Positions 3,915-32,000 of a stretch of DNA of 32,000 bases are shown here, piece by piece (the stretch's first letter is position 1; every line of letters begins with the position of its first letter). This DNA is from Trichodesmium erythraeum IMS101 (lineage in GTDB: Bacteria; Cyanobacteriota; Cyanobacteriia; Cyanobacteriales; Microcoleaceae). The stretch spans positions 1,350,001 through 1,382,000 of the forward strand of contig NC_008312.1 in assembly GCF_000014265.1 (NCBI RefSeq), in the 5' to 3' direction. The notes beneath the pieces were generated by a model. It worked only from the letters and a program-made list of their open reading frames with translations. It made no database searches and was not told the DNA's origin. Both the position numbers and the translations under genes were made by a program.

Positions 3915-3957
3915 TAATACCTAACACCTAACACCTGACATCTGACACCTGACACCT
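3915..3957 (+). repeat. Heptanucleotide tandem repeat (TAAYACC/TGACAYC, about 6 copies), STRR-like
   Basis: Direct reading gives taatacc taacacc taacacc tgacatc tgacacc tgacacc. Heptamer STRR-type repeats are a known feature of filamentous cyanobacteria. Confidence 0.85.
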
Positions 3958-4847: not shown

Positions 4848-5109
4848 CATATACTGTCTGAAATAGTTTTATTGCGGATGTCGCCATAAAAATTTTTACT
4901 TATAAGGTTTTATTGCGTATGCCGCAATAGGAATTTTTGCTTGTTTCCAGAGGCTCAATCAGTTTAATTTCATCTAAATATCTAGATATTATCTGAAATA
5001 GTTTTATTGCGGATGTTGCAATAAAATTTTTACTTACAAGATTTTATTGTGTATACCATAATAGGAATTTTGACTTACTTCCAGAGGCTCAATTTTGTAG
5101 AAGTCTATT
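4848..5109 (+). repeat. Diverged mini-array of the same repeat family (two units of about 135 bp, four hairpin modules)
   Basis: The motifs are tgtctgaaatagtttt / ttattgcggatgtcgccata / ttattgcgtatgccgcaataggaattttt / gctcaatcagtttaatttcatctaaat..., repeated with gctcaat at 4952 and 5087. They are homologous to the A and B units of the 473-3866 array. Confidence 0.85.
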
Positions 5110-5186
5110 TCAGAAACCCTAATAACTTATATTGTGTTCAGCTATATTCTGATCAATTATCTTTTCAATTTAAAGGAGTGTTAATT

Positions 5187-5828: not shown

Positions 5829-5924
5829 TTTGCTTCTAATCTTTCTTTAATTCAGTCACATTTTGGATTTTCATTACTCCAAAATGGTAAAATAGATGAA
5901 GCTGAGAAAAAGTTTTTAGAGGCT

Positions 5925-7523: not shown

Positions 7524-7744
7524 GCAAATTTTACCAAAAAATTGGGTTTAAAACCTCCCCCATAAGCGGGCGACCTTCCATGTTATAATAAAAATATTTT
7601 GAATACCCGCCTTGTCTCATAAATACTGTAGAAAAGAAAATATAGTCAAAACTCCGCCCATTAAGAGATGAATTTCTAAATCTGAAAGCTTTCAAAGCAG
7701 CCTTAGAATTTTTAAAATATGAAGACTAAAAAAGTTAAAACATT

Positions 7745-7805
7745 TGACTGTTGACTTCTTACTTCTTACTTCGGCTTTGTTGCATCAAAGTGGTAGAAGT
7801 CTATT
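7745..7805 (+). repeat. Remnant of the array repeat family downstream of the CHAT gene
   Basis: ttgacttcttacttcttacttcggct...gtagaagtctatt parallels ttgacttacttccagaggct...gtagaagtctatt at 5070-5109 and the A-unit 3' end ctcacttacttcggct. Confidence 0.55.
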
Positions 7806-7897
7806 AAATCAGGATTTATCAATAAATGTCACTAATCCTAAAGTCTTGTAATGCAAGGATTCCAGAATATTCTTACAACAAAGCCATTACTAACTAT

Positions 7898-9337
7898 TTA
7901 CTGAATTAACTTTTCCCAAGCTTGCCATAAAATCTCCACAGCCTCTGCCGGACTATTAGACAAAAATTGCCTTGCCTTCTGCAAACACATTTGTGCTTTT
8001 TGTTCATCTCCAGACTTCCTAATTGCCAAACTTAACCACAACCAAACCATGGGTTGCTCCGACTGAATATCCAAAGACTTAAAATAACATTCCACAGATT
8101 TTTCATACCTATTAGATTGATAAAACAAAACACCTAAATTCCGCCACCCTTGCCAATGATTTGGTTGTAACTTCACCGTTTTTTTATAACAAAAAATAGC
8201 TGAATTATAACGTTTCAACTGATAACAAACCTCAGCCTTCTTATACCAAGCATCATAATTATTAGGTCGAATATTAATAGCCCGGTCATAAGCAGCGATC
8301 GCCTCCTCAGTCTTCCCAAACTCCTGCATAATTCGACCCTTAATAATCTGGGGAATTCCCCCCAACATTTTTGTTAACAAAGAAGGATTATTACCACCCA
8401 TTTGAGAAACAGAATCAGCAAAACTTTTCTGATATTTGATAGACTCTAATTCTTTTAAAACCTGTTCTACAAACTGATACCTTTCATTAATATTCGGAGC
8501 CAAAAGCTGATCAATAACTCTCCCCAAATCTTCACTAATATTAGACTGTAAATATTGTCGCCAAACCCATTGTCCCTCAAGCACATCAAACAACTCAAAA
8601 GGCGCAACTTGAGTCAACAAATATATACAAGTAACCCCCAAACTATAAAAGTCACTAGCAGGAGCAGCCTTTCCCGCCAACTGTTCTGGGGCCACATATC
8701 CCGCACTACCAATCATCGTTCCAGTTTTACCCAAAGAAGAATTCGTAATTACCTTACTCGCCCCAAAATCAACCAACACCAACTGGCCCTTATTTTCCCC
8801 TCCACCATCAGGAAGGGTAATAGAATTGCGCCGAATAATATTTTCTGGCTTAATATCCCGATGAATCACCTGGCGTTCGTGGACAAACTCCAACACAGAC
8901 AACAAATCCCAAAGTAACTCCTGAATTTGATTTTCCGTAAAAGTCCCATTAGCAACCAATTCTTGCTCTAAATTTTGCCCGTCAATAAATTCTTGGACTA
9001 AATATTGTTGTTCCCCCTGTTGAAAATGAGCCATTAATTCAGGAATTTGGGGATGTTGACCCAACTCATCAAGTCTTATAGCTTCCCGACGAAACAACTC
9101 AGCAGCTTTTAGAGCATTAGCACTATTTTGGGGAAAAAATTGTTTAATTACGCACCTGGGCAAAGAAGGTTTATACTCATCCACAGCCAAAAAAGTTTTA
9201 CCAAAGCTACCTTGACCAATAGGTTTAATAGCACGGTAGCGATCGCCCAAGAGCAACTTAGCTCCACAGCTTTGGCAAAATGTATTTCCAGATGGATTAT
9301 ATGGCTTTCGGCATTCAGAGTTGAGGCAGTAACTCAT
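7898..9337 (-). CDS. Ser/Thr protein kinase with N-terminal four-Cys zinc-ribbon prefix and C-terminal TPR repeats
   Basis: CLNSEC...CQSCG occurs at the N-terminus. The kinase motifs are GQGSFGKT, VIHRDIKPENI, VDFG and GYVAPE. C-terminal TPR-like repeats are present (EEAIAAYDRAINIRPNNYDAWYKKAEVCYQLKRYNSAIFCYKKTVKLQPN). Confidence 0.92.
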   Translation of the reverse strand: MSYCLNSECRKPYNPSGNTFCQSCGAKLLLGDRYRAIKPIGQGSFGKTFLAVDEYKPSLPRCVIKQFFPQNSANALKAAELFRREAIRLDELGQHPQIPELMAHFQQGEQQYLVQEFIDGQNLEQELVANGTFTENQIQELLWDLLSVLEFVHERQVIHRDIKPENIIRRNSITLPDGGGENKGQLVLVDFGASKVITNSSLGKTGTMIGSAGYVAPEQLAGKAAPASDFYSLGVTCIYLLTQVAPFELFDVLEGQWVWRQYLQSNISEDLGRVIDQLLAPNINERYQFVEQVLKELESIKYQKSFADSVSQMGGNNPSLLTKMLGGIPQIIKGRIMQEFGKTEEAIAAYDRAINIRPNNYDAWYKKAEVCYQLKRYNSAIFCYKKTVKLQPNHWQGWRNLGVLFYQSNRYEKSVECYFKSLDIQSEQPMVWLWLSLAIRKSGDEQKAQMCLQKARQFLSNSPAEAVEILWQAWEKLIQ

Positions 9338-9704
9338 CCGTTTAACTTAAAAATTTAGTTAGTGATAGCCTATAAACAGGAAATGCTAGATTCCCGAAGC
9401 ACGAAAACCAAAATTTTCAGGAAGGGAAAATTTTTCATACCTTAGCCGAAAGATATTTCAGTTACCAGTCATTAGTATTCTAACTGCTTCATAACACTGA
9501 TATAAAACATCACAACTAGTAATAACAGTAATGTTTACTTCCAGCTTTTACCAGATAGCTAATAATCAGAATCCCATACCAAGAGCAAAAATAGTTTCAT
9601 AGGCATCAACAGTTAAGGAAACCCTATCTCTCAATTATTCCCAGCTAAAATATTAAATGTTCAACCTAAACCAATATTATACCCAATATTTTTAATTTTT
9701 ATTA

Positions 9705-11642: not shown

Positions 11643-12056
11643 GTCTTACCAGCTTTTTTCTCAGGGTTCAAATTTTGGCTCTGAAATTTTCTATTTTAAT
11701 TTTTGCTGGTTAGTTTTTCTAGATTTTTTTGATTTAGGGACTAAGTTCTTATTTTTTTTGGTTGATTAATTCTTGATTTTAAACCATATTTTTGGCAGTA
11801 ATTCTTTATATAAAACAATTTAACTACTAAGCTTTTTATTTTTTCATTAATTTATTTGATGGCCTAATTTATTTTTGTATACATTGAATAATTTTTGTCC
11901 ATTTTTTGCTAAAAAGAGATTCATATATTTTTATTATAACTACTATTAACAAAAGTGGAACTATACTGAATTTTTCACTCTTGCAGAAATAGAGATAATT
12001 TATATAATTTTCTAATCGTACACTAATATTAATAGTATTTATGGTGATGGCGTCAA

Positions 12057-12982
12057 TTGATGAAAGCTAATTCTATAGACTTAAGAAAAAGAATACAGAT
12101 ATTTGGGATTATGGAAAAAAATCTACCAATAAACTATATCAAAGGTTTAGAAGGTTTAGGGTTAGTAAAAGTGTTATTCAATGAGTTGAGTCAAAAAGTA
12201 TCAAATAAATGGAGATATTATACCTTGAACTCAAGGTGTAAGCCCTCCTTATAAATTAAATAGTGAAGAGTTAGTAATCTGAGTATAAATAATAGATAAA
12301 AATAATAAGGCAGCTAATGAATAATTATGTAATTTACTGGAACCTGGCACAAAAGTAAAAGGGATAAAAGTATAATTAGTCAAAATTTATGCTATAGCCT
12401 TTAGAAAATATATATACGCCTGAAAAATTAAATTTTAAATTCAATCTGAAAGATTAGAACATCAGGAAATAGTCATAGAAATTAAGGTAGATAATTTAGT
12501 TTTATAGGTTAATTAGGATTGAGTATAACACAGCACTTCGACTATATACTATAGCATTAAAAGAGATAATGGCTAGAGGAGAAACACGGATCAAACTAGA
12601 ACAAAATATTTTGACATTGAGGGGCTATGTATTCAGAAAAAGTTTTTAATATTTATGCAGCAGTGGACGGAGTAATTTTGGGGTGCATAGCATTCGATAC
12701 TAAAGCTTTTCTGCTTAAAGAAGTAGTAATATTAATTGTTGGATAGACTTTTTGTCATAATGGATAACCTTAAAATTCCTAAAAAGGAGAAATAGTAAAA
12801 TAAATTATTGAAGAAATTGAAGATAGTCTCACATATCTACTTAACCTCCTAATTCACCATAATTTTCCTTCTATTAAAATTTTTATCAAGGTTTAATTGA
12901 TGCTATTACCTAAGAGATATTAGAAATTACTCAAAAAAAAGATATTCGCAACTGGTTTACCCATTGTTGTTATTACAACTGA
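12057..12982 (+). pseudogene. Decayed IS630-family transposase (multiple stops and frameshifts)
   Basis: Fragments in shifting frames are SIDLRKRI (N-terminal HTH), FVIMDNLKIPKKE (DDE region, compare IMDNxxIHK) and the terminal KDIRNWFTHCCYYN* ending at 12980-12982. No continuous ORF is present. Confidence 0.6.
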
Positions 12983-14009
12983 ACTTTCCCCCTACAAATG
13001 TACTATAATTTCTAGGAAAAAATATCTATCAATACTTTTACTTACCCTATCTCCTACTTCCATATATGGATACAAAAAATATGTTTTAATTTATGAATAG
13101 GGATTGCCATATAATAAAAATTAATAATAAAAATTATACATATACAACAGCATAGCTCAAGATACTCAAATGGTTAAACATCAGAGCTCTTTTCTTGTGG
13201 ATATTTTTAGTGAAAAAATTGCGGTTAACTACCTTCAAGTGGGAACTTAGTGATTTTTATCAGGAGGAAAGTTCAGTTTTCTTTATGAATAAAAAAACGT
13301 ACTAATTAGTCGGTTAGGTGAGAATAATTTCACTATATCCTATTGCTATAACCAGCTCAAGAACCAAATATTCCACACTTAACGCCGTTTTAAGAGTTCT
13401 TTGATAAATAACTTCTATAAATTTAATCACTAATTAGTTAGTAACTTTCCTGGTTATAGTAATCTATTATTCATCGATAGTTTGCTAATTTATCCGTTAG
13501 TAAATTTATGCATTTTATCCCCAGATAACTGCCGATAAATAGAATAAATTATCCTCACAGGTATATTAGCAAATTGAGCTAAAATCAAATTATATAAATA
13601 ACCATATTGGGGATTATTTTTTAGTAACAAAAGTTCGGAAAATATATAATTTTTTTTAGTTATTCTATATTCACGAGGATTATATTCTATCCTAATTTGT
13701 TCTGGTTGAAGCAGTATATGACCAATAATTTTTCCTTTTTTATAATACCTAGCTTTAATAGAAAGCTCAAGTCATCTATCCAGCTACCAGAAAGGAAAAT
13801 ATTTAAATAGTAAAAAAAATTATTGTATATATAAATATCTGCCAAAGTTGCTTGTAGCATTTGATTATTCCATACTTTTTTCTCCAATTTTTTTGTATGA
13901 CGTATATGCTAATTTTTTATATCCTTGAAAATATATAAAGGATCGAGTTTATTATACAAAGTATAGTTATTTTAAATAAAACTGAGACACTATTTGGCAC
14001 AATAATTAC

Positions 14010-14843
14010 GAATAAATTCATCAAGAGATGTATTGATAGGTGAATATATTCTAGCTCTTTTTAATGCGCTAAAATCATGTTCTTAGTTATTTAAATCAGG
14101 AGAGTATTTTGACAAAAATAGTAATTGGTGACCCCATGCTTCTACTAATTCTCTAATAACGTTTTTTCGTAATTAATGGTGAATTATCCGTGCAGCAGTA
14201 CACTGGGAATTTTTAATGATGGTAATAAATGTTTATCTAACCATTGTTCAAATCCCACAGCATTTAGACTTCCTTTGAATATAATTGGTGCTATTAAATC
14301 TTTTTCCTTTTTTCTTCTCCCGGCTACTAAATTTTCTCTTTTACCTCGTTTTCCCTCTTGCTCACCATAAACTTTTTTCCCTTTTTTTGACTAGGAATAA
14401 ATACAGTCTTGATTCTCTTAAAATTCTAATTCATCAATAAATACAAGGCTTTTACTTCTAAATTTTTTGATTAAATTTCGAGGGAAAGCTGATAATATTT
14501 TATCCTTTCTTCTCTATTTATTTCTCTATAACAAAGTGGTTTCTTTTTTCAAGGAAAATTCATTATTTTTAAAGTATAAAATATAGCTGGTTGATTAACT
14601 CCAAATTTTTTAGCTCTGTCTGACAATGAGCGACTATGGATTTGGTTTTACATCTTTTTCTAATTCTTTCCAATCTAATTTTCTTTGACGACTTTTTACC
14701 TTAGTTGCTGACAATTTTGGGCGAAATAACCATCTATATATCGAAGCTATTCCTATCCCAAATGTATGAGCTGCTTTGGTAATTGTACCGCCATTTTCTA
14801 CAAAATTTATTACTTTTTGTCTGAAGTCTAAACTGTAAGGCAT
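14010..14843 (-). pseudogene. Decayed IS630-family transposase; the N-terminal HTH ORF is intact (14634-14843) and the DDE part is broken
   Basis: MPYSLDFRQKVINFVENGGTITKAAHTFGIGIASIYRW is a typical IS630 OrfA/HTH. Downstream minus-strand fragments read VFIDELEF, KVYGEQEGKRGKRENLVAGRRKKGKDLIAPIIFKGSLNAVGFEQWLDKHLLPSLK and LLENS..KHGVTNYYF. They are interrupted by several stops. Confidence 0.7.
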
Positions 14844-15169
14844 AGTTCAAAATGTTTTCTAGTTGACTTAATTTTATTATACCCAATTCTTGTTTCAATC
14901 TTAATTAAAACGACTATAACTATGATTATTTCTCCCATATAATTTAGTTTTTCACACAATTTTTTATTTTTTTTACTTACATCATAAGTCTTTATCTCAT
15001 AAATATTAGGTACTGCTTCCTAAGGAGATTTTAAACTCGAATCATAACCATATTTTAAGTTTTTTTTCTTGGTATTCAAACCCAACTATCAGAGAATTTT
15101 TTCAAATATTATTTGATTATTTTTGCAATATCTGGATGGATAAGTTCATCACAAAATCCTTGTGAAAAT

Positions 15170-15397
15170 CTATTTTTTTGAGGCATTTATCAGATTAGTC
15201 ATTCTTTGAATTATTTCTCCACAAAATAAGCTATTTATTTCTTGAACTCGCGGGCCGCTAATTGAAAATTTTTTTATTCCTGGAGGATTAACTAATATTA
15301 ATTCTAAATCTCCGTTAATTTTTCATAGAGCTTCGAGCCAATATTCGGGAATTCCTTCTTTGGTGGGGACTACAATTGAGAATGTTGGTTGTCTCAT
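15170..15397 (-). pseudogene. Possible fragment of a family-2 glycosyltransferase (N-terminal part, interrupted by stops)
   Basis: The minus-strand reading is MRQPTFSIVVPTKEGIPEYWLEAL*KINGDLELILVNPPG..., which resembles the GT2 N-terminal FSIVIPT...L..L......E(I/L)I(V/L)V pattern. The evidence is weak. Confidence 0.3.
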
Positions 15398-15967
15398 TTC
15401 ATTTATCAGTTATTAACATTATTAGGATGTCATCGTACTACTATATAACTCCTGGTTTACTACAAACAGTGAAGAAATTTAGGCATTACAAGTTTATTGT
15501 CAAAGAAAAAAAATGTTGGTAGACCTAGAAAAATATCGCCTATAGTGGAAAAAAGTTCATGTCTGAACTCTTTCAAACAGAGAGTTTTAATAGTTATGAG
15601 GTCAAGCGATCGCGCTTCTTCAAGAATGAAACTACCCTACTATATCCCCATTTCCTCATGTCTAGGATGTCCAGCATTTCCAGCTGCTGGAGCTTCTCCC
15701 TCAGAACCCCATATGTCTTTTAAGAGAATGAAAATACCCTGACCCCCCCCAAGAGGGGAAGTCAAAAGCCAAAAGTAAGATTCTATAGGCTCTAAACTTA
15801 GATGCTACAGTAATTTCAGCAAATTATTTCACATATATAGTTTTCAACTATTTGTAATATTCTTTTTTTCACCCTTGGTATTATTTATTAGTGTTTAAAC
15901 AAAAATAATATTAGTAGTTAATATTAGATATAATTTTATCTAACACTAATAACCTAACACCTTCTGA

Positions 15968-21846: not shown

Positions 21847-21919
21847 TGTCAAGTTGGCAAATACTTGTGACATCTTTAAACTGTATTTGTTTGACATATC
21901 TTTTTCAAAAAAATTGGCC

Positions 21920-24900
21920 ATGAAACGTATTGTTTTAATCGCAGGTTTTGAATCATTTAACACCGGACTCTATCGCCAAGCTGCTCAGTTAGCAACTTCT
22001 CGATGTCCAAATTTAGATATCCAAGTATTTAGCGATCGCGCACTTTCCACAGAACCAGAAAAAGTAGCCACCGCCTTAGAAAACGCTGATGTATTTTTCG
22101 GCAGTCTCCTCTTCGACTACGACCAAGTTCTGTGGTTACGCGAAAGAATACAACATATTCCCATCCGTCTCGTTTTTGAGTCAGCACTAGAATTAATGGC
22201 ATTAACAAAATTGGGAAAATTTATTATCGGCGACAAACCCAAAGGAATGCCAAAACCAGTCAAATTTATTCTCAGCAAATTTTCTAGCGGGAGAGAAGAA
22301 GACAAACTTGCAGGTTATATCAGTTTCCTGAAAACCGGTCCAAAATTACTCAAATTTGTACCAGTCAAAAAAGTGCAAGACCTCCGGAACTGGTTAATAA
22401 TTTACGGTTATTGGAATGCCGGCGGTACAGAAAACGTCGCTGCCATGTCTTGGGTATTGGCAGAAAAATATTTAGACTTAAAAGTAGGCGAAATACCTCC
22501 ACCACTCGAAACTCCCAATATGGGTTTACTCCATCCAGACCACCATGGTTATTTTGAGTCTCCCCGAAAATATCTTGAATGGTATCGCCAACAGAAACCA
22601 ACTTCCCCCACCCCAGTTGTCGGTATTCTACTCTACCGCAAACACGTCATTACCAAACAACCTTATATTCCCAAACTTATCCACAAATTTGAAGAAGCAG
22701 GTTTAACACCTCTTCCTATATTTATTAACGGTGTGGAAGGTCATGTTGCGGTCAGAGACTGGATGACCACCGCTCACGAAAGTCAGAAGTCAACCCCCCC
22801 ACTTACTCCCAAAGAAGGAAATAAAAAACATAATACCACTAATAGGTCAAAAAATTTGTCTCCTATTAGCAATAAACCAATACTTTCCCTATCTCCCGAA
22901 GCAGTGGAAGTCGATGCAGTTGTTTCTACTATTGGGTTTCCCTTGGTGGGAGGTCCTGCAGGTTCTATGGAAGCAGGGCGACAGGTAGAAGTTTCCCAGG
23001 CTATTCTCAATGCCAAAAATGTTCCCTATCTTGTAGCAGCACCCTTACTTATTCAAGATATCTATTCTTGGACTCGCCAAGGAGTGGGAGGTTTACAAAG
23101 TGTAGTCTTATATGCCTTGCCAGAATTAGATGGAGCAATAGATCCAGTTCCCCTAGGTGGTTTAGTAGGAGAAGATATTTATTTAATTCCCGAACGAGTA
23201 AAACGCCTCACAGGTAGAGTCAAAAATTGGATTAAACTACGTCAGACACCCCCGGCACAAAGAAAAATTGCTGTTATTCTCTATGGTTTTCCTCCCGGTT
23301 ATGGTGCTACAGGTACAGCAGCTTTATTAAATGTGCCCCGCTCGCTCCTGAAATTTCTCCATGCTCTCAAAGAGGAAGGTTACAATGTTGGGGAAATTCC
23401 TGAAGATGGGGAAGAACTGATTCGTCAAATTAAGGAGGCAGATGAGGCAATACAAAAAGCAGACCTATCGAAAGTAAATTTTAAAAGTCTCGAAAAATGG
23501 TTAGGCTATCTATCAATAACTCGCATGGAAAAACAATGGGGAAATCTCACAAATACTGGCATAAAAACCGATGGTAAAAATTTCCATATTGGGGGAATTC
23601 AATTAGGAAATATTTGGCTGGGGGTACAACCACCTCTGGGAATTTCTGGCGACCCTATGCGCTTAATGTTTGAAAGAGATTTAACACCCCATCCCCAATA
23701 TGCTGCTTTTTATAAATGGCTCCAAAATGAATTTCAAGCTGATGCTGTTGTTCACTTTGGTATGCATGGAACTGTGGAATGGTTACCCGGTTCACCTTTA
23801 GGAAATACTGGCTATTCTTGGTCGGATATTCTGTTAGGAAATATGCCACATCTATATATATATGCTGCTAATAATCCCTCAGAATCTATGTTGGCAAAAC
23901 GTCGGGGTTATGGGGTTTTGATTTCTCATAATATTCCTCCTTATAGTCGGGCAAGTTTGTATAAAGAATTGGTGAGTTTGCGAGAGTTAATTTCTGAATA
24001 TCGGGAAGATACACAGAAAAATTCTGGGTTACGGGAAGGAATTTTTAAGAAAATTTTTGATACTGGTTTAAATTCTGATTGTCCGTTTGAGTATGGGAAA
24101 AAATTAGGAATTGAATTTACTCCGGAAAATGCTCGGATGTTTAGTGCGGATATGGTTAATTCCTATTTTGTGGAGATTTATAACTATTTACAGGTTATAG
24201 AACAAAGATTATTTTCTTCTGGTTTACATACTTTGGGAGAGGTGCCGAACGAGGAAGAATTAAAATCTTATTTGGAGGCTTATTTTGGAGAAAAAATCGG
24301 AGATATAACTCAGGATTTTAGGGAAAGAGATACAGATAATTTAGTTAATAAAGATGCTGAAAAAATTCGGGAGCTGTTAATGCAAAATACTGATGAGTTG
24401 ACTAATCTTTTGCGGGGATTAAATGGAGAATATATTCCGGCTGCTCCAGGAGGAGATTTATTACGGGATGGTCCTGGAGTTTTGCCAACAGGAAGGAATA
24501 TTCATGCTTTGGATCCCTATCGAATGCCTTCTCCTGCTGCTTATGAAAGAGGACGAGAAATTGCTAGGAAAATTATTACTCAGCATCTGGAAGAAAATGA
24601 TAATTATCCTGAAACTGTGGCAGTAATGTTATGGGGTTTAGATGCTATTAAAACTCGTGGTGAATCTATAGGAATTTTATTAGAATTAGTAGGTGCTGAA
24701 CCAGTAAAAGAGGGTACCGGTCGTATTGTTCGTTATGAATTAAAAAGTTTAACTGAAGTCGGTCATCCCCGGATTGATATTTTAGGAAATTTATCGGGAA
24801 TTTTCCGGGATAGTTTTGTGAATATTATTGAATTATTAGATGATCTATTCCAACGAGCGGCAACAGCAGACGAACCTGTGGAGCAGAATTTTATCCGCAA

Positions 24901-25666
24901 ACATGCTTTAGCATTACAAGAGCAAGGAGTAGAAAATATTTCGGCGCGGTTATTTTCTAATCCTGCTGGTGATTTTGGTTCCTTGGTAAATGACCGAGTT
25001 GTTGATGGAAACTGGGAGTCTGGGGATGAGTTGGGCGATACTTGGCAAGGGCGAAATGTTTTTAGTTACGGTCGTCAAGATAAAGGTCAGGCACGACCAG
25101 AAGTTTTGCAGGAGTTGCTCAAGGGTTGCGATCGCATCGTTCAAGAAATTGATTCGGTGGAGTATGGTTTGACGGATATTCAGGAATATTATGCTAATAC
25201 TGGTGGGTTGAAGTTGGCAGCAGAAAAACAAAGGGGTAAGAAAGTCAGTGCGAGTTTTGTGGAAAGTTTCTCAAAGGATACCACCCCCCGAAAATTGGAA
25301 GATTTGTTGCGGATGGAATATCGCACAAAATTATTGAATCCTAAGTGGGCAGAGGCAATGGCAAATCAAGGTAGTGGAGGAGCTTACGAGATTTCTCAAC
25401 GGATGACGGCGTTGATAGGTTGGGGGGGTACCGCTAATTTTGTGGATAGTTGGGTTTATGATGGTGCAGCTGAGACTTATGCTTTGGATGCAGAGATGGC
25501 GAGGAAATTACGGGAGGCAAACCCGGAGGCGTTTCGGAATATTATTGGGCGGATGTTGGAGGCTAACGGACGGGGTTTTTGGCAAACAGATGATGAGAAG
25601 TTGGAGAAGTTGCGGGAGTTGTATGATGTGGTAGATGAGAATATTGAAGGTGTGAGTGTTGGGTAG
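21920..25666 (+). CDS. chlH: Magnesium chelatase subunit H family protein (ChlH/BchH-type, CobN superfamily), about 1248 aa
   Basis: The N-terminal layout IVLIAGFESFNTGLYRQAA...DVFFGSLLFDYDQV is of ChlH type rather than CobN type. Internal IGFPLVGGPAG and HFGMHGTVEWLPG are present. The C-terminal EANGRGFWQTDDEKLEKLRELYDVVDENIEGV resembles ChlH C-termini. I prefer the ATG at 21920 (MKRIVLIAG) to the track start at 21854. At this length it may be a second, shorter paralogue. Confidence 0.8.
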   Translation: MKRIVLIAGFESFNTGLYRQAAQLATSRCPNLDIQVFSDRALSTEPEKVATALENADVFFGSLLFDYDQVLWLRERIQHIPIRLVFESALELMALTKLGKFIIGDKPKGMPKPVKFILSKFSSGREEDKLAGYISFLKTGPKLLKFVPVKKVQDLRNWLIIYGYWNAGGTENVAAMSWVLAEKYLDLKVGEIPPPLETPNMGLLHPDHHGYFESPRKYLEWYRQQKPTSPTPVVGILLYRKHVITKQPYIPKLIHKFEEAGLTPLPIFINGVEGHVAVRDWMTTAHESQKSTPPLTPKEGNKKHNTTNRSKNLSPISNKPILSLSPEAVEVDAVVSTIGFPLVGGPAGSMEAGRQVEVSQAILNAKNVPYLVAAPLLIQDIYSWTRQGVGGLQSVVLYALPELDGAIDPVPLGGLVGEDIYLIPERVKRLTGRVKNWIKLRQTPPAQRKIAVILYGFPPGYGATGTAALLNVPRSLLKFLHALKEEGYNVGEIPEDGEELIRQIKEADEAIQKADLSKVNFKSLEKWLGYLSITRMEKQWGNLTNTGIKTDGKNFHIGGIQLGNIWLGVQPPLGISGDPMRLMFERDLTPHPQYAAFYKWLQNEFQADAVVHFGMHGTVEWLPGSPLGNTGYSWSDILLGNMPHLYIYAANNPSESMLAKRRGYGVLISHNIPPYSRASLYKELVSLRELISEYREDTQKNSGLREGIFKKIFDTGLNSDCPFEYGKKLGIEFTPENARMFSADMVNSYFVEIYNYLQVIEQRLFSSGLHTLGEVPNEEELKSYLEAYFGEKIGDITQDFRERDTDNLVNKDAEKIRELLMQNTDELTNLLRGLNGEYIPAAPGGDLLRDGPGVLPTGRNIHALDPYRMPSPAAYERGREIARKIITQHLEENDNYPETVAVMLWGLDAIKTRGESIGILLELVGAEPVKEGTGRIVRYELKSLTEVGHPRIDILGNLSGIFRDSFVNIIELLDDLFQRAATADEPVEQNFIRKHALALQEQGVENISARLFSNPAGDFGSLVNDRVVDGNWESGDELGDTWQGRNVFSYGRQDKGQARPEVLQELLKGCDRIVQEIDSVEYGLTDIQEYYANTGGLKLAAEKQRGKKVSASFVESFSKDTTPRKLEDLLRMEYRTKLLNPKWAEAMANQGSGGAYEISQRMTALIGWGGTANFVDSWVYDGAAETYALDAEMARKLREANPEAFRNIIGRMLEANGRGFWQTDDEKLEKLRELYDVVDENIEGVSVG

Positions 25667-25885: not shown

Positions 25886-26391
25886 ATAGAATATCGTAGG
25901 GCAAAAAATACCAGGGGCAATTTATTTTTTCACAGCAGTAAAATACAAACGCTAGAAAGTTTTGTGTCAACCTGAAAATATAGATTTACTAAGAAAAGCT
26001 TTTCGATATGTTATGCAAAAATATCCATTTTAAATAGATGTTATTGTCATCCTGCTAGATTACCTCTATACTCTTTGAAAATTACCTAAAAATGATGCGG
26101 ATTTTTCTAATTGTTGGCAGTTAATTAAAAATTATTTTAGTCGTCAATGCTATTCTCAATATGAGGATAAAATTTTAATATCTCGACAATATACAAGGGA
26201 AAAAATTGTTCGGCAATGTAGGTTTTGGGAGCATCAAATTCAAAGGAATTTAGATTTTGCTAATCATATCAAATATATTGATTATCATCCAGTACATCAT
26301 GGATTAGTGGCTGCTCCCAAAGATTGAGAATACTCTAGTTTTATCGTTATATAAAAATAGGAATTTATGACAAAATGTGGGAGTCTTCATA
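25886..26391 (+). pseudogene. Decayed REP-associated tyrosine transposase (RAYT, IS200/IS605-like Y1 family)
   Basis: With stops and frameshifts it reads EYRRAK.IPGAIYFFTAVKYKR*KVLCQPENIDLLRKAFRYVMQKYPF*IDVIVILLDYLYTL*KLPKNDADFSNCWQLIKNYFSRQC...REKIVRQCRFWEHQIQRNLDFANHIKYIDYHPVHHGLVAAPKD*EYSSF. This matches the RAYT pattern (PDHLH...W..RFWEH.IRD..DF..H.DYIHYNPVKHGLV..P.DW.YSSF). Confidence 0.75.
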
Positions 26392-26775
26392 AACGATTAT
26401 TTTTGATAGTAATTTTTCCAGAGAATAAAACTATAATTTTTGCCAATAATTAAGGATATTGAGGGTATTATTATTGGGTAGTTTCTTAAGCAAAAATTTT
26501 ACATTTTCAAAGGGATTTAGATTTTGCTAATCATATCAAATATATTGATTATCATCCAGTATATCATGGATTAGTGGCTGCTCCCAAAGATTGAGAATAC
26601 TCTAGTTTTTATCGTTATATAAAAATAGGAATTTATGACAAAATGTGGGAGTCTTCATAAACGATTATTTTTGATAGTAATTTTGCCAGAGAATAAAACT
26701 ATAATTTTTGCCAATAATTAAGGATATTGAGGGTATTGTTATTGGGTAGTTTCTTAAGCAAAAATTTTACATTAC
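26241..26775 (+). repeat. Two-copy tandem duplication of about 267 bp (RAYT 3' end plus the region upstream of the HEPN gene)
   Basis: caaaggaatttagattttgctaatcatatc... at 26241 recurs as caaagggatttagattttgctaatcatatc... at 26508. Both copies run through ...gggtagtttcttaagcaaaaattttacatt with only a few substitutions or indels. Confidence 0.9.
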
Positions 26776-26790
26776 AGGAGGTAGATTTTT

Positions 26791-27237
26791 TTGGATAATA
26801 ACTCAGATACTTATGGCAGAACTATTTATTTAGGTGCTTCTCGACGTCGCCTTGAAGATGCTGAAGCGCTCTATAATCAAGAACGTTGGAATGGTGCTAT
26901 TTACATGGGTGGTTATGCTATTGAATGCGCTCTCAAATCTCTCCTTTGTCATGAGGAAGACATAGTGAATTTTAAGAAGACAAAAGTATTTAAGCGCTTA
27001 AAAGGTTCAAATTTACATGATTTAGAACAGCTATTAGAAGCTTCGTATATATGTAAAGGAGTTAAAGATTCAAAAAAAGATCAATCTCTTAAAAAGGCAT
27101 GGGACACAGTTAAATTATGGCAAAATGATAAGTTACGATACTCAGATAAAAAGGGTGATAAAATTGAGGCTAGCAAGTTTATTTATGCAGTAAAAATACT
27201 ACATGGATATTTCTTGGCAAAACTACAAGCTTATTGA
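26791..27237 (+). CDS. HEPN-domain protein (148 aa)
   Basis: AGGAGG at 26776-26781 lies 9 nt before the TTG start. The helix pattern is ASRRRLEDAEALYNQERWNGAIYMGGYAIECALKSLL, NLHDLEQLL and LWQNDKLRYSD...EASKFIYAVKIL. This matches the classical HEPN layout (A..L.....W..A......A.E.ALK.LL / H.L..L / ...RY). Confidence 0.6.
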   Translation: MDNNSDTYGRTIYLGASRRRLEDAEALYNQERWNGAIYMGGYAIECALKSLLCHEEDIVNFKKTKVFKRLKGSNLHDLEQLLEASYICKGVKDSKKDQSLKKAWDTVKLWQNDKLRYSDKKGDKIEASKFIYAVKILHGYFLAKLQAY

Positions 27238-27288
27238 TGCAGTAAAAAAACTACATAGATATTTATTGAGCAAACAAGGAGAAGGCTA

Positions 27289-29997
27289 ATGACGGATAGA
27301 AAACTCTTAATGGAACAAATTCAGGACCACCTAAACCAGAGTTTACAACTTCAAGATTCACAAGTTCAAGTAAACGTAATAAGAATGTCAACAGGTGGGC
27401 TAAAAATTATAATTATTACTAGTTTATTTCAGGAACAATCTTTAGAAGAGCGAGAAGACAAAATTGATGAAATATTAGCAAATATAGATTTGAATTTGAA
27501 TAAATATCCAATTTTAAGCTATGATTTGTTAACTCCTGAAGAAGCAATAGAAGAACCTTTTGAATCTACTCAACCTCAGTTACCTTTGTGGTCAAATATT
27601 TTAATGGCACCAGAACCTGATGTACAAAAAAAATCAGATGAAGAAGATATTTTTAAAACTCCTTTAGTTGTGACATTCTATTCTTTTCGAGGAGGGGTTG
27701 GTCGTTCTACGGCATTGGGTTTAGTTGCTGGAATATTAGCTACTGAAAAAAAACGTCGAGTAGTAATACTAGATTTTGATTTAGAAGCACCAGGAATTTC
27801 AATTTTATTGGAGCCAGATATTTCTAAATTGAGTCCAGAAAATTATGGTGTATTAGATTATTTATACCAACGCTTTATCTCCCCGGAAGAAAATTTTCCT
27901 CCCATTGAACGTTGTATTTATCAAGTAAAATTAAAAGCCCGCGGTGACTTATTTGTGGTTCCGGTTGGGGAATATGATGAATATTATATTCATCGTTTAG
28001 CTGAACTAGACAGGGGTACTTTGCAGGCTTTTTATCATCGAGAAAATAATCCAGTTGAACAACTAATTGAAGATATTAAAAAGCAATTAAATCCTGATGT
28101 GATTTTAATTGATGCCCGTCCTGGATTTAATGATACTAGTGCTATTGCTTTATTAGATTTAGCTGATACAGGAATTATCTGTTTTTCACCTACTGACCAA
28201 AGTTTTAAAGGATTAAGTTGGGTGGTAAAAAGTGTTCGTAAACAATGGGAATATCAAGGGAAACCAGATTTGAGTTTTGTCCTAACACCTATACCTCCTG
28301 TTGCTCAAGAACAACGTCAAGTTTGGATAAGTAATGTTGAAGATTGGATAGAAGAAAACTGGGGGTTACCAAATGATAAAACAGTCAGCGACACTTACTA
28401 TGAAGTTAACTACAATCCTACCCTTAGCACTTTATCAAGTCTAGTTAATAATTTACCTAAAAGTTTACTGGATAATTATCTTTCAATTGCAGAATCAATT
28501 GATGCTAGTTTGCCAGATATTAAACCTCATTTAAAAACCACTAATGTTCTTAATAAAGATACTAAAGAAGCTGTTTTAAAGGAGTTAAAATTTTCAGCAG
28601 TAACAGCACAAGATATAGAAGTAGAAAAGATTCCAGATATATTCCAACGCACAGGAGATTTCCCCAATTTTTTAAACGATAAAACTTGGTTGATTCGAGG
28701 TGCAAAAGGAACAGGAAAAAGCTTATTATTTAGACTTTTTGTAGAACAAACATTAAAAGACAAAGCAAAAAAATTAGCTGAAGAATCTGGTAAAAACATA
28801 GATAATTTTTATTGTATTCCTGGTCATGGTAAAGCTACAATAAAAAGGTCTATTTTAGAGGGTACCGCCCTAGCTAGTTATGAAGAGCAGGCGGGAGATA
28901 ATTGCTGGAGATGTTTTTGGTCAAATTATGCTTTATTACAATTATGTTATTCTTTGCCACAAAAGTCGCTCCCTAATATTAATGAGAATTTAAAAGCTTT
29001 AATAGATACTGAGGAACCCAGAAGCGGTGATATAGTTTCGTGGTTAGTTGACCAAGCAAAATCATCAACAGCTAGTGTCGAAACTCTTGATCAACTACGA
29101 GATGTTAACTCATACTTACAAGAAAATAATCGGCGAGTGTGGCTCCTCTATGATGAGTTAGATACAGGATTTGGCCATAGTCAAGAAGACTATCGGCGAC
29201 GAAGAGAAGCATTAGAAGCTTTGCTGGCTTGGTGGTTAGAAAGTGGTATCAGCCTGGAATATATTGTGCCTAAGATATTTTTACGAGAGGATATTTGGAA
29301 TAAACTTAACTTTACTAACAAAGGACATTTTGCCAGTGGGCGAACGCTTGAATTGAAGTGGGAAGAAGCTGATCTGTGGCGACTTGTACTGCGCCAAGCT
29401 CTTCAATTATCTGATAGTCTTAGTCAAACTATTAGTCAGGAGTCAGGAGTAACAGTTGAACGACTTGAGAAGACTGAATTAAAGCAATTACGCCAAAGCC
29501 TTTTTCCTCTGTGGGGAGAAAAGATGGGTAGTGGCAACAAGAGTTACATTTACAACTGGATACGGAAACGAACCGCTGACAGCCAAGATAATAGTTTTCC
29601 CCGAAGCTTGATATTACTTTTAGAGCAAGCAGTCGAAAGAGAGAAAAATTACTCCAAAGAATATAGTGATCCAAGAATTTTGCGCCCAAAGTCATTAACT
29701 GATGCTTTGCCAGAGGTATCTAAGCAGCGTGTCGATGAAGTGTGCAACGAATATCCCGAACTTGAGGCACTGTTAAAGAAACTCCGGGGTGAACGCTCAC
29801 CTATTGATGAAAAACAACTAACAAAAATATGGAACATTAAAGGTACAAAGTTAAATGCTCGTCTCCAGGAAATGATTGATGCAGGTATTTTTAAAGAGTA
29901 TTCACGCCGTAAAAATGTCTCCCCAGATGTCCGGGTTTATAGTGTTGCTGAACTATATTTGTATGGATTGGGTATGACTCGTAAGGGACAGCGCTAG
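27289..29997 (+). CDS. 902-aa three-module NTPase: small N-terminal domain, ParA/MinD-fold P-loop with variant RGGVGRS Walker A, and a second P-loop ATPase with helical C-terminus
   Basis: AAGGAG at 27276-27281 lies 7 nt before the ATG. The first Walker A is SFRGGVGRST (27682-27711), with VILIDARPG at 28099-28125. The second Walker A is GAKGTGKS (28699-28722), with Walker B VWLLYDELD at 29137-29163. From memory these resemble the NCBI families named 'KGGVGR-motif variant AAA ATPase' and 'P-loop ATPase, Sll1717 family'. That recollection is unverified. Confidence 0.8.
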   Translation: MTDRKLLMEQIQDHLNQSLQLQDSQVQVNVIRMSTGGLKIIIITSLFQEQSLEEREDKIDEILANIDLNLNKYPILSYDLLTPEEAIEEPFESTQPQLPLWSNILMAPEPDVQKKSDEEDIFKTPLVVTFYSFRGGVGRSTALGLVAGILATEKKRRVVILDFDLEAPGISILLEPDISKLSPENYGVLDYLYQRFISPEENFPPIERCIYQVKLKARGDLFVVPVGEYDEYYIHRLAELDRGTLQAFYHRENNPVEQLIEDIKKQLNPDVILIDARPGFNDTSAIALLDLADTGIICFSPTDQSFKGLSWVVKSVRKQWEYQGKPDLSFVLTPIPPVAQEQRQVWISNVEDWIEENWGLPNDKTVSDTYYEVNYNPTLSTLSSLVNNLPKSLLDNYLSIAESIDASLPDIKPHLKTTNVLNKDTKEAVLKELKFSAVTAQDIEVEKIPDIFQRTGDFPNFLNDKTWLIRGAKGTGKSLLFRLFVEQTLKDKAKKLAEESGKNIDNFYCIPGHGKATIKRSILEGTALASYEEQAGDNCWRCFWSNYALLQLCYSLPQKSLPNINENLKALIDTEEPRSGDIVSWLVDQAKSSTASVETLDQLRDVNSYLQENNRRVWLLYDELDTGFGHSQEDYRRRREALEALLAWWLESGISLEYIVPKIFLREDIWNKLNFTNKGHFASGRTLELKWEEADLWRLVLRQALQLSDSLSQTISQESGVTVERLEKTELKQLRQSLFPLWGEKMGSGNKSYIYNWIRKRTADSQDNSFPRSLILLLEQAVEREKNYSKEYSDPRILRPKSLTDALPEVSKQRVDEVCNEYPELEALLKKLRGERSPIDEKQLTKIWNIKGTKLNARLQEMIDAGIFKEYSRRKNVSPDVRVYSVAELYLYGLGMTRKGQR

Positions 29998-30008
29998 GCC
30001 AAAAATAT

Positions 30009-30250
30009 TCAGGGCTTACTTATAGCCACCTTAATATAGTAGGGTTTTTCATCTTGTGGAGCACTCCGTTGACCTTTACAAATTTGATATATTGTTACCC
30101 TTGCCCTTGTAATTGGAGTAGTGTTTTATAGTTTAGCGATCGCCGATGCCTTTTTTTCGCCATTGGTTAAACCTTTGAGTTGTTGAGCATTATAGTAAAT
30201 AATCATAACTCGAGTAGCTACTACTAAGTTGAGTCTGACAAAACAACCCT
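30009..30250 (-). pseudogene. Remnant of a second CHAT-domain gene (middle part only, with an in-frame stop; catalytic part missing)
   Basis: The minus strand reads FVRLNLVVATRVMIIYYNAQQLKGLTNGEKKASAIAKL*NTTPITRARV. The intact CHAT ORF in this window has LFNQNLVVGNPVMPIDHNGQQLKALPNAEKEASAIAQLLNTIPITGIRA. Confidence 0.65.
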
Positions 30251-31088
30251 ATATAGTTGAGATATTCCCCGCTACCCTTAACAAGGGGGGAGCTAACAAA
30301 AAGTTCCCCTTTTAAAAGCAGGGGATCGTAAATTTACCCCATAAGTGTGGAAGTTACTATCTTTTTTTAATTCAACTTTTGCACCGTTGCCCAGCCTAAA
30401 CTATTCACCTTACGGGGTGACAAGCAGCTCAAAACACGGGCAGGTCAGGGAAAGCCAGGAAAGCTGAAGGGCGGGGAACCTGTGTTTGTTTTTTTTATTC
30501 GCGTCCGCGTCCTGCATATCTATCGTAGTATCCCACCTGTTGAACCCCCCTGGCGCCCTTGGAGCCCTACCCTAGAGGAGTGACTAACAGTCTATTCGCT
30601 ACAAGAAATTGACTTACTACCCTTGCTATTTGTTTATTTTCCGGCATTACCGTCAGCAGAAAGTCAAAAAGGGCTGACTTCTTCTTAGTAGAGCGAGAAT
30701 TTTAGCCATGGATGTCGTTAGCAATATCCCCTCAGGGCAACCCAAGCAAAATAGGTGCAGGTGTAAGTATAAATTGAGCGATCGCCTCCTTTGAGTACAC
30801 TATAAATAATTAAATAAATTTGGTTAGGACTCATTACAGTTTGAATAAATACATACTTAAAAAACCTAGCGTTGGTTATTTTCGCGCGTAATTGTACTTT
30901 AATAGCGATCTCCTAAACCCCTTTTTCTTACTAGAAAAACATTTTCTATTTTGCCAAATTATGATTTCATCATGATTCACCTATTTAATGGCAAAATTTA
31001 GGTTTCAAAAGGTTTTTAATATTATGAAGTGGAGATGTAGCTACCCCTGAGCTTTGCCTTTCATATTAGCAATAGTCAAAACCCTAAA

Positions 31089-31135
31089 AAAACAGAAAAT
31101 AAACAGAAAATAAACAGAAAATAAACAGAAAATAA
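31089..31135 (+). repeat. 11-bp tandem repeat (aaacagaaaat) x4
   Basis: acag recurs at 31092, 31103, 31114 and 31125. Confidence 0.9.
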
Positions 31136-31352
31136 TTAGTTTTGTTCTTTAAGTTCCTAGGCAAAATTAATTACCTGATTTTATTCACAAATCATTATAG
31201 AATATATACTTTTTTCATTTAAATATGTGTAATTAACTCCGTATAACTAGTTAACTATAGATAAAATTTTTACCACTATTTCACCACTAATTATTAAACA
31301 GATTAATATCTGAATCAATAATTATTTTAGCGCAATTCCATCATTTAAAGAC

Positions 31353-31381
31353 TTGACATTTTTAACAAAATAATGTAAATT
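31353..31381 (+). promoter_or_regulatory. Candidate sigma70-type promoter: TTGACA-17 nt-TAAATT
   Basis: A consensus -35 TTGACA lies at 31353-31358. An exact 17-nt spacer follows, then a -10-like TAAATT at 31376-31381. This is a sequence pattern only. Confidence 0.35.
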
Positions 31382-31399
31382 TATATACATTATTAAACT

Positions 31400-31440
31400 A
31401 ACAGCCCTATTTGTTTGAAATAAAGGGGCTGTTTTTTATT
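31400..31440 (+). terminator. Rho-independent terminator-like hairpin
   Basis: aacagccc (31400-31407) pairs with gggctgtt (31426-31433). The loop is about 18 nt and the stem is followed by a T-run (ttttttatt). Confidence 0.55.
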
Positions 31441-31499
31441 GATTTTTACTAAACTTAGAAGTCAGTCAAACTCAATTATACTCAATTACCTAACAATTT

Positions 31500-32000
31500 A
31501 TGCAACCAATATCTCATCAATCAAATAAATGGTTTGTTATTGGAATAGCTAGCATATTTCTATTTTCAGCAATTCTGAGATTTTGGCAATTAGGTCGTTT
31601 TAATACCCTCGTTTTTGACGAGGTTTATTATGCTAAATTTGCTAATAACTATCTTACTCAAACTGAATTTTTTAACGCCCATCCTCCCCTCAGTCAATAT
31701 ATAATTGCAATTGGTATTTGGATAGGTTCTCATTTACCCTTTGGGCAAGAAATAGTTAATAATGAAACAGGTTCTACTTTAGCCGCTTGGAGTTATCGGT
31801 GGGTAAATGCTTTAACAGGTTCATTTATTCCTCTGGTAGTGGGAGCGATCGCCTATAAATTAACACACCGTTGGAGTTATAGTTTGATAGCTACTTTACT
31901 CATGGCTTTAGACGGATTATTTTTAGTTGAGTCTCGTTATGCTCTGAATAATATTTATCTAGTAATTTTTGGATTATTAGCTCATTTGTGTTTAATTGTT
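31500..32000 (+). CDS. Dolichyl-phosphate-mannose-protein mannosyltransferase-like (GT39/PMT_2) membrane glycosyltransferase; 3' end beyond the window
   Basis: From ATG 31500 there are 167 codons open to the window end; I checked them codon by codon and found no stop. The product reads MQPISHQSNKWFVIGIASIFLFSAILRFWQLGRFNTLVFDEVYYAKFANNYL...FFNAHPPLSQY. The FDE(V)YYA...HPPL motif is typical of PMT-family transferases. The ORF is absent from the track because it has no stop in the window. Confidence 0.8.
   Translation, partial: MQPISHQSNKWFVIGIASIFLFSAILRFWQLGRFNTLVFDEVYYAKFANNYLTQTEFFNAHPPLSQYIIAIGIWIGSHLPFGQEIVNNETGSTLAAWSYRWVNALTGSFIPLVVGAIAYKLTHRWSYSLIATLLMALDGLFLVESRYALNNIYLVIFGLLAHLCLIV

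Follow-up and report, generated by a model that had tools for sequence, protein, structure and literature searches.

A 32,000-nt stretch of Trichodesmium erythraeum IMS101 (NC_008312.1, assembly GCF_000014265.1, positions 1,350,001-1,382,000; hereafter the window, to which all coordinates refer unless another locus is named) contains two adjacent genes, the first encoding a 148-residue HEPN protein and the second a 902-residue NTPase built of three modules. Comparison across genomes showed that the two genes are inherited as one unit across phyla, that they were ancestrally coupled in translation, and that they co-diverge. Judged by its profile matches, the locus is a variant of an already catalogued phage defence candidate, PDC-M28, with the second and third components (B and C) fused into one protein; it is uncharacterised yet not unnamed. 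Our favoured reading, offered tentatively, is that the locus is a two-gene conflict module of the fused B+C PDC-M28 form, in which an NTPase controls a HEPN RNase. The elements of the pair are the following:

26776-26781, + strand: Shine-Dalgarno sequence AGGAGG, 9 nt 5' of the HEPN TTG start, read from the sequence
26791-27237, + strand: HEPN gene of 148 aa with a TTG start, of the PF05168 / HEPN-T type
27289-29997, + strand: gene for the 902-aa three-module NTPase with an ATG start, a fusion of PDC-M28B and PDC-M28C

An earlier, sequence-only reading of the window had described both open reading frames (ORFs), the spacing of AGGAGG to the start codon and a gap of 51 nt between the genes; all were found in the ORF list and the sequence where that reading had placed them.

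The protein search covered 1.84 billion cluster representatives (50% clustering) and yielded 213 ATPase representatives at E < 1e-30, most of the top 150 being full-length fusions of 850-900 aa. A genome scan, using one genome per species, gave at least 583 ATPase loci, which span Cyanobacteria, Chloroflexi, Gamma-, Delta-, and Alphaproteobacteria, Actinobacteria (Streptomyces, Frankia), Firmicutes, Bacteroidetes, and Spirochaetes; 80 of these loci were examined for their neighbours. When searched with a profile built from close relatives, 61 of the 80 had a same-strand HEPN ORF directly upstream of the ATPase gene, a number that rose to 69 once the profile was iterated; the loci without an upstream HEPN were mostly contig ends or KGGVGR-only proteins. 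Conserved adjacency had been set beforehand as the test by which the sequence-only reading could be refuted, and it was upheld, the 80 related loci coming from at least seven phyla. Stop and start codons overlap by 4 nt in 29 of the 64 complete pairs, and the distance lies between -4 and +21 nt in 50 of the 64. Pairwise identities of the HEPN proteins follow those of the ATPases closely (Pearson 0.95, Spearman 0.78 overall), and the correlation was 0.63 where ATPase identity was below 40%. No third gene recurred among about 60 related loci. Two divergent clades of the pair exist in cyanobacteria, and Scytonema UIC 10036 carries both. The proposal that the locus is a self-contained pair of conflict-system type, a HEPN gene with a large double-P-loop NTPase gene, is supported by the adjacency, the co-divergence, and the fold of the small protein.

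That the small protein is a HEPN, as had been proposed from its helix pattern, agrees with both sequence and predicted structure. The PF05168 HEPN model matched it with 27.5 bits (cut-off 22), and the AlphaFold (AF2) model, which has a mean predicted local distance difference test score (pLDDT) of 88.1 and a predicted template-modelling score (pTM) of 0.84, is an all-alpha up-down helical bundle of the kind expected of HEPN domains. When the model was compared with the PDB by Foldseek, the top 11 matches were all HEPN proteins (TM 0.54-0.71, probability 0.97-1.00, E = 0.014-0.5), beginning with ST0689, TT1696, 4NQF, TM0613, AF0298, SsR10, and the sacsin HEPN, followed by AbiV and Csm6; the PDB entries and proteins named among these fold matches are 1wol, 1ufb, 4nqf, 1o3u, 2hsb, sacsin, AbiV, and Csm6. 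A search of PDB sequences with the HEPN profile returned only spurious matches, namely a designed Kelch-like repeat protein and a ribosomal protein. Conservation was assessed over 198 members of the family, drawn from many phyla; among the polar positions, R20, D23, E45, C46, K49, H76, R116, and Y117 are conserved, and the invariant pattern consists of H76, R116-Y117, and E45-x3-K49. The window protein does contain R69-x6-H76, but position 69 in the family is most often Gly, and the canonical Rx4-6H motif therefore does not characterise the family. A published census of HEPN domains (PMC3710099) described E-x3-K in helix 2, an upstream invariant His, and an invariant basic residue at the motif position in the PF05168/AF0298 and AbiV types, and proposed the pattern of this His with the basic residue as an alternative HEPN active site. 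The invariant polar residues found here fit that alternative site, and catalysis by it is plausible from the pattern of conservation.

The large protein divides as follows, the four nucleotide-binding motifs lying in the translation where the sequence-only reading had located them:

27289-27552, + strand: module i, residues 1-88, BolA-like (class II KH-like), by family profile against BolA structures, PF01722 in relatives, and AF2
27553-27660, + strand: residues 89-124, low-confidence linker with P99-L100-W101 (LPLW), by AF2 pLDDT and conservation
27661-28518, + strand: module ii, residues 125 to about 410, ParA/MinD-fold KGGVGR variant, by NF047398 and Foldseek
27682-27711, + strand: Walker A of module ii, SFRGGVGRST, with R139
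28099-28125, + strand: Walker B of module ii, VILIDARPG, with D275
28609-29904, + strand: module iii, residues 441-872, Sll1717-family P-loop ATPase with a helical, winged-helix-like C-terminus, by NF047389 and PDC-M28C
28699-28722, + strand: Walker A of module iii, GAKGTGKS, with K477
29137-29163, + strand: Walker B of module iii, VWLLYDELD, with D622

Invariance was assessed in an alignment of 26 homologues with identities down to 26%. In module ii G135, G136, V137, G138, R139, T141, D162, D164, P168, R277, and G279 are invariant, and in module iii G471, G474, G476, K477, and D622; because these key residues do not vary, the nucleotide-binding motifs are not chance occurrences. More than 120 full-length cyanobacterial homologues of the ATPase have 57-95% identity. 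Conservation is even along the 902 residues, the C-terminus included, and there are no repeats.

Module i had been left unplaced by the earlier note. At the level of the family profile it is BolA-like: the profile matches 17 solved BolA structures (best E = 6.9e-6), 8 of 25 relatives individually match PF01722 in this region, and the order of elements predicted by AF2 is alpha-beta-beta-alpha-beta-alpha; the window's own domain falls below the PF01722 threshold by itself. The profile match over the 88 residues includes the VVSxxFxGxxxxxR core of BolA, but the "RHR" of BolA is reduced in the alignment to an invariant R55, and the C-terminal His ligand for Fe-S is absent. Since that ligand is missing, an Fe-S/glutaredoxin role appears unlikely. 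The linker that follows has a pLDDT below 50 over residues 89-122; W101 within it is invariant across phyla, P99 and L100 are strongly conserved, and all three are invariant among cyanobacterial homologues.

Module ii matched NF047398 ("KGGVGR-motif variant AAA ATPase") with 167.2 bits against a cut-off of 90, and module iii matched NF047389 ("P-loop ATPase, Sll1717 family") with 134.3 bits against 75 over residues 441-872, with canonical Walker A and B motifs; both models had been named in the earlier note. By Foldseek, module ii resembles MinD, Soj, ParA, McdA, and FleN (E = 5e-8 to 1e-5, target-normalised TM 0.7-0.78). It shares with these proteins the fold, the glycine-rich loop, the Walker A' DxD, and the Walker B Asp. 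It differs from them in that the P-loop Lys is invariably Arg (R139, in GGVGR[ST]), in that the window protein also has Arg at the position of the signature Lys, and in that it forms one part of a larger, multidomain protein. The earlier description of a ParA/MinD fold with Arg for the P-loop Lys is borne out by the fold matches and by the invariance of R139. Retention of the Walker A' residues (D162-x-D164) and of the Walker B D275 argues for the KGGVGR module being a modified nucleotide switch and not a dead domain. As a partition ATPase of the ParA/MinD kind it was rejected: the ParA_partition, MinD, and VirC1 models gave 15-25 bits against cut-offs of 180-508, and Arg139 replaces the Lys. 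As the earlier note had stated, no ParB or centromere partner was found around the pair in the window, and there was no MinE or MinC partner either. Variant, predicted-inactive MinD/ParA-like domains have been described as conflict-system components in multicellular bacteria (Kaur et al. 2020).

The fold comparison did not place module iii. Foldseek with the whole 902-aa model listed only MinD/ParA-type chains among its top 50, and module iii alone against PDB sequences gave nothing below E = 0.6. Weak ORC-CDC6-like and NACHT matches were all below cut-off. Its GxxGxGKS and hhhhD-E-L-D Walker B resemble those of NACHT in the STAND/NLR-like (Avs) proteins, but an assignment as a STAND NTPase was rejected (NACHT 15.3-17.7 bits against 26.7, nSTAND_NTPase5 12.5 against 34, and no repeat-type sensor). 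The C-terminal 115 residues weakly match NF053860 DS41_1 (E = 5e-5), which points to the validated DS-41 anti-phage system of DefensePredictor (PMC13092281); this relationship too was discarded, the score being 22.4 bits against 370 and the hhalign comparison with a partial DS-41 sequence aligning only 45 columns around the P-loop with a probability of 5.6%.

The sequence-only reading held that the pair matches no named system, and here it was not sustained. Searches with the PADLOC-DB profiles matched PDC-M28A to residues 13-112 of the HEPN protein (profile positions 5-100 of 138; E = 1.2e-10, 40 bits), PDC-M28B to ATPase residues 8-319 (E = 8.9e-38), and PDC-M28C to ATPase residues 462-858 (E = 1.3e-30), and both ATPase modules also have NCBIfam names. 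PDC-M28 (cassette CAS_00115, 121 RefSeq instances) belongs to a set of 145 phage defence candidates whose prediction was based on "guilt by embedding" within BREX, DISARM, and type I restriction-modification (R-M) systems (Payne et al., bioRxiv 10.1101/2024.01.29.577857). The three families occur in the same order (A>>B>>C), B being BolA-like plus KGGVGR and C the Sll1717 ATPase, but the cassette (FAM_01482>>FAM_02546>>FAM_01036) has three separate genes whereas B and C in the window are one polypeptide. Of the best 150 representatives, more have the fused form than any other, and true three-gene versions with B and C split were found at loci L028, L071, and L080. There is nothing categorically new in the pair; it is a candidate system with family members already catalogued.

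Some of the related loci depart from the usual architecture. An Oscillatoriales metagenome-assembled genome (MAG; L028) has the split three-gene form at 1027-4346 and a fused form at 6499-9658, 2 kb apart on the same strand of one genome. In Microcystis sp. LSC13-02 (L083, 3989-6958) a HEPN gene is followed by one for a 426-aa BolA-KGGVGR protein and then by a GmrSD_N/DUF262 protein that replaces the Sll1717 ATPase, and in a Calothrix locus (L079) the third module is absent altogether. Because the GmrSD_N/DUF262 protein takes its place in Microcystis, the Sll1717 module looks exchangeable, and the core of the system looks to be the HEPN and the BolA-KGGVGR protein, as far as gene content can indicate. 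The KGGVGR domain is also found N-terminally in TPR-repeat proteins of 630-650 aa from Bryobacterales and Vicinamibacterales (L085, 7010-8899; L086, 6908-8851), with neither HEPN nor the Sll1717 module.

The favoured reading is supported by the joint inheritance, translational coupling, and co-divergence of the two genes, by the invariant candidate catalytic residues and the two differently built P-loops, and by the conflict-type relatives and contexts; the hallmarks of conflict systems include the PDC-M28 matches, split and fused forms side by side, coexisting clades, the swap of module iii, and a plasmid copy by hsdR. As we picture the mechanism, the HEPN and ATPase proteins would form a complex. 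The HEPN would be a metal-independent "alternative histidine" HEPN-T endoRNase, its site comprising H76, R116, and E45-x3-K49 in line with the proposal for AF0298 and AbiV, and its activity, as in other HEPN RNases, would depend on two HEPN domains lying next to each other. The role of switch would fall to the large protein: its KGGVGR module may be a slow or non-hydrolysing device for nucleotide-dependent dimerisation, the Sll1717 module with the winged-helix-like C-terminus a hydrolysing sensor or timer, and the BolA-like domain a binder of nucleic acid or of a partner. When a cue arrives, be it phage infection or some other stress, the ATPase would dimerise or oligomerise, driven by nucleotide, and two HEPN subunits would thereby be joined or set free, with RNA cleavage and growth arrest as the outcome. 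By analogy, the gating logic may be that of PrrC/RloC and RNase L/Ire1, which are established members of the HEPN family (PMC3710099), since in the logic proposed here a module that binds nucleotide or dimerises likewise gates a HEPN endoRNase acting as a dimer. In those proteins, however, HEPN is fused to its regulator, which is either an ABC ATPase or a pseudokinase, and neither showed homology to the present ATPase modules.

Other systems resemble the pair in part. A dyad of a HEPN of the MAE_18760 family with ParA/Soj was predicted as a toxin-antitoxin system in 2013 (Anantharaman et al., PMC3710099). As here, a small HEPN is encoded beside a ParA/Soj-type SIMIBI ATPase; the family is named after a Microcystis gene, and Microcystis carries a relative of the present system (L083). 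The MAE_18760 family, however, keeps Rx4-6H and has its ATPase gene 5', whereas the present family does not conserve that motif and has its HEPN gene 5'; the description of the dyad includes neither a second ATPase nor a BolA-like domain, and among the source names returned by a HEPN search in Microcystis none bore the MAE_18760 tag. The HEPN-MNT (HepT-MntA) systems likewise have a small stand-alone HEPN of the PF05168/HEPN-T type, 1wol, 1ufb, 1o3u, and 2hsb being from such proteins, but the partner here is a 902-aa NTPase and not a minimal nucleotidyltransferase. The earlier statement that no MNT gene lies beside the pair held for the adjoining ORFs, searched with Pfam. AbiV, the HEPN RNase of a two-component antiphage system of Lactococcus (PDB 9bj5-9bj7, deposited as an antiphage-system RNase), has the HEPN fold but a low TM (0.4-0.5), no sequence similarity, and another partner protein.

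The chromosomal site of the pair contains several decayed elements:

21854-25666, + strand: paralogue of the BchH-type magnesium chelatase H subunit (TIGR02025, 1570 bits, cut-off 829)
26115-26327, + strand: decayed remnant of a REP-associated tyrosine transposase, RAYT, in the spacer between bchH and HEPN (NF047646, 55.9 bits, profile positions 76-142 of 146)
26239-26773, no strand: 268-bp tandem duplication, 2.0 copies, 98% identical (Tandem Repeats Finder, TRF)
30060-30230, - strand: CHAT-gene remnant, convergent with the ATPase gene (tblastn)

The decayed RAYT upstream and the truncated CHAT remnant downstream had both been recognised in the sequence-only reading, and the NF047646 and tblastn matches agree with it; the decayed CHAT reading frame can be followed until only about 12 nt separate it from the stop codon of the ATPase gene, also as described. 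The upstream tandem duplication is likewise present, but its period is 268 bp according to TRF and not 267 bp. The 3' end of the RAYT remnant falls within it, its own end lies 3 nt short of the Shine-Dalgarno sequence, and the sequence just upstream of HEPN is present twice because of it. The CHAT remnant is 54% identical (E = 9e-11) to residues 344-400 of the window's full CHAT protein (5925-7523), of whose gene it is a decayed paralogue.

That the pair is an accessory cassette recently inserted between such debris was the conclusion of the sequence-only reading, and the RAYT remnant, the 268-bp duplication, and the CHAT remnant do flank it, with a DDE transposase fragment at the start of the window (15-455). 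The gene order speaks otherwise, and we regard recent insertion as very improbable. The bchH-like, HEPN, and ATPase genes occur in the same order and orientation in four cyanobacterial lineages, namely that of the window and three others (Hormoscilla, Coleofasciculus, and Tolypothrix-type Nostocales), and the same BchH-type neighbour is present at L002/L003, L005/L006, L020, and L094. Because this order is shared among lineages, the pair was already at the site before the debris. The spacer between bchH and HEPN is 250 nt in Hormoscilla; in the window it extends over 1.1 kb, and since the RAYT remnant and the 268-bp duplication both lie inside it, they arrived after the pair. Furthermore, the identical ATPase is found on at least 23 public contigs with the same neighbours. 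The evidence says, as far as synteny can, that the pair is an old resident of its chromosomal site and not a fresh insertion. In Coleofasciculus (L094, 4837-5497) an MNT-HepT pair is inserted between the bchH-like gene and HEPN, and in Hormoscilla (L006, 2798-3443) another is inserted upstream of the bchH-like gene; the flanks of the bchH-like gene look like an insertion hot spot.

A second duplication affects the junction of the two genes:

27174-27274, + strand: 52-bp tandem duplication of the HEPN 3' end and the intergenic spacer (TRF and sequence)

Its second copy encodes the ancestral HEPN C-terminus, AVKKLHRYLLSKQGEG, whose stop codon overlaps the ATPase start codon in the sequence TAATG; the 51-nt gap in the window, and with it the loss of translational coupling, is due to this duplication. 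A Trichodesmium MAG (L018) has the duplication in common with the window (copies 96% identical), and Okeania (L001) is without it. Despite the duplication, both ORFs in the window are full length and have all the family-invariant residues. Promoter and terminator scans gave counts not above those of shuffled controls, which leaves no ground for naming operon signals, and an Rfam scan of the whole window found no family at the gathering score.

Several observations weigh against a conflict module. In the HEPN protein, the canonical contiguous Rx4-6H is not conserved among the 198 members, and in the 902-aa protein no hypervariable module of the immune-sensor kind was found. No copy of the pair was present in the phage collection. 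Only one full-length plasmid copy was found (L087, Nostoc sp. UHCC 0870, NZ_CP091916.1); it is about 550 nt from a divergent type I R-M hsdR, with a recombinase and an SMC-family ATPase nearby. A defence-island setting, which the earlier note had suggested checking, was weak: around some 60 loci, housekeeping genes, such as those for tRNA synthetases, CTP synthase, RuvB, and chaperonin, predominate among the immediate neighbours, and only a handful of neighbours match defence models (IetA twice, and a type I specificity subunit, PD-T4-2, and TnpB once each). ATPase identity tracks taxonomy, being 76-78% for Okeania and Dapis, 64% for Hormoscilla, about 60% for Nostocales, and 54% for Leptolyngbya, and the pair in cyanobacteria looks vertically inherited, judging from this relation of identity to taxonomic distance and from the bchH synteny. 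The ratio of nonsynonymous to synonymous substitution (dN/dS, by the NG86 method) of the ATPase was 0.07-0.15 in four of five comparisons, indicating strong purifying selection; it was 0.35 in the least-diverged comparison, that of the window with Okeania, and the HEPN values were 0.10-0.51. A literature search found no experimental test of PDC-M28 or of any homologue, and a cold-seep study tested other PDCs, not PDC-M28. The weightiest observation is a natural deletion: Tolypothrix-type genomes and a Stigonema MAG have lost the 5' two-thirds of HEPN, including E45, K49, and H76, at the same breakpoint, leaving the following:

L002, 7756-8001; L003; L004; L008, about 1517-1699: HEPN remnants consisting of the last ~60 codons

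The ATPase beside the remnant is intact (82% identical between Tolypothrix-type and Stigonema, dN/dS 0.074), and the 60-codon remnant is itself constrained (dN/dS 0.14). As an intact ATPase outlives the catalytic half of HEPN, it has value without a catalytic HEPN. Taken together, vertical inheritance, chelatase synteny, and an ATPase kept without a catalytic HEPN form a pattern in cyanobacteria that is atypical for defence genes.

The pair might instead be a toxin-antitoxin system, the HEPN RNase being the toxin and the large ATPase the antitoxin, and might serve addiction or stress dormancy and not dedicated sensing of phage. Neutralisation would be by nucleotide-dependent conformational change or by phosphorylation, as was postulated for the HEPN-ParA/Soj dyads (Anantharaman et al. 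2013). The published prediction for that dyad favours such a role, as do the tight two-gene unit with its translational coupling and co-divergence, the single plasmid copy, and the insertion of MNT-HepT pairs in the same neighbourhoods; the loss of the catalytic half of the toxin from lineages that keep the partner is also seen with orphan antitoxins. However, neutralisation needs far less than a protein of 900 aa that combines two NTPase modules with a BolA-like domain and a conserved C-terminus, and the HEPN-first order is opposite to the positional argument made in 2013 (PMC3710099). An orphan ATPase kept at a dN/dS of 0.07 over a dS of about 1.3 is hard to explain for an antitoxin without a target, and the 2013 MAE_18760 family may not be the present one. 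We consider a toxin-antitoxin role unlikely.

It is likewise doubtful that the pair serves bacteria, mostly filamentous or multicellular ones, as a domesticated or housekeeping regulatory machine, with an NTPase acting in RNA- or nucleoid-associated regulation or positioning, perhaps linked to tetrapyrrole/Mg-chelatase H biology, and HEPN as an accessory RNA-binding or RNase subunit. The vertical-looking inheritance and strong purifying selection in cyanobacteria would fit such a machine, and so would uniform conservation along the protein, housekeeping neighbourhoods, retention of the ATPase and of the constrained HEPN remnant after loss of the catalytic half, and a taxon list rich in Streptomyces, Frankia, myxobacteria, Chloroflexi, and filamentous cyanobacteria. 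The BchH-type paralogue directly upstream in four lineages points the same way, as does a ChlH-type gene in Limnothrix (L038), where a clade-2 pair, 29% identical, is 90 nt downstream of a 1338-aa ChlH-type gene. Yet 13 other clade-1 loci have no bchH neighbour, and the tetrapyrrole-themed neighbourhood of a Microcoleus locus (L093; GUN4-kinase, DUF2470, AAA-545) recurs only in L011, so its DUF2470 and AAA neighbours are not general. Nor does a housekeeping machine sit easily with a patchy spread across phyla at 25-30% identity in unrelated neighbourhoods, with several paralogous systems per genome and split and fused forms side by side, with the exchange of module iii for a GmrSD_N protein in Microcystis, or with the finding of the family embedded in R-M, BREX, or DISARM loci and beside hsdR. 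A bolder proposal, and one we hold to be rather improbable, is that the cyanobacterial BolA-KGGVGR-Sll1717 NTPase is more than the sensor of a suicide RNase: inherited vertically and under strong constraint, it would have its own role in the cell, and HEPN would be the regulated RNase output; in its favour, the NTPase outlasts the catalytic half of HEPN and recurs directly downstream of BchH-type genes in four lineages and of a ChlH-type gene in the 29%-identical clade.

The remainder of the window is gene-poor and rich in decayed elements. A TPR protein and then the full CHAT-domain protein are encoded at 5049-7523 (+ strand), facing a convergent gene for a Ser/Thr kinase-TPR protein at 7898-9337 (- strand). 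An 11-bp tandem repeat (AAATAAACAGA, 4.5 copies) occupies 31086-31135, within a long non-coding region between the CHAT remnant and a PMT-family gene starting near 31500. There is no ORF of at least 90 aa in 11643-15967 (4.3 kb) or in 29998-31500 (1.5 kb).

If the pair works as a system, it adds a widespread NTPase-plus-HEPN module, with at least 583 loci in at least seven phyla, to the prokaryotic conflict systems. Its control unit would be an unusual one: a ParA/MinD fold in which the catalytic Lys is always Arg, fused to a canonical ATPase and a BolA-like domain. A detection rule for PDC-M28 that requires three separate genes may overlook the fused form; because this form is common and tools seeking three genes may miss it, the abundance of PDC-M28 is probably underestimated. 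The cyanobacterial data provide handles for choosing among immunity, toxin-antitoxin, and housekeeping roles, and they raise the question of whether defence is the whole story. Were the NTPase to have its own cellular function in cyanobacteria, it would represent a novel type of NTP-driven RNA or stress switch in multicellular bacteria, possibly tied to tetrapyrrole or photosynthetic status, and the label "defence candidate" would cover only its mobile relatives.

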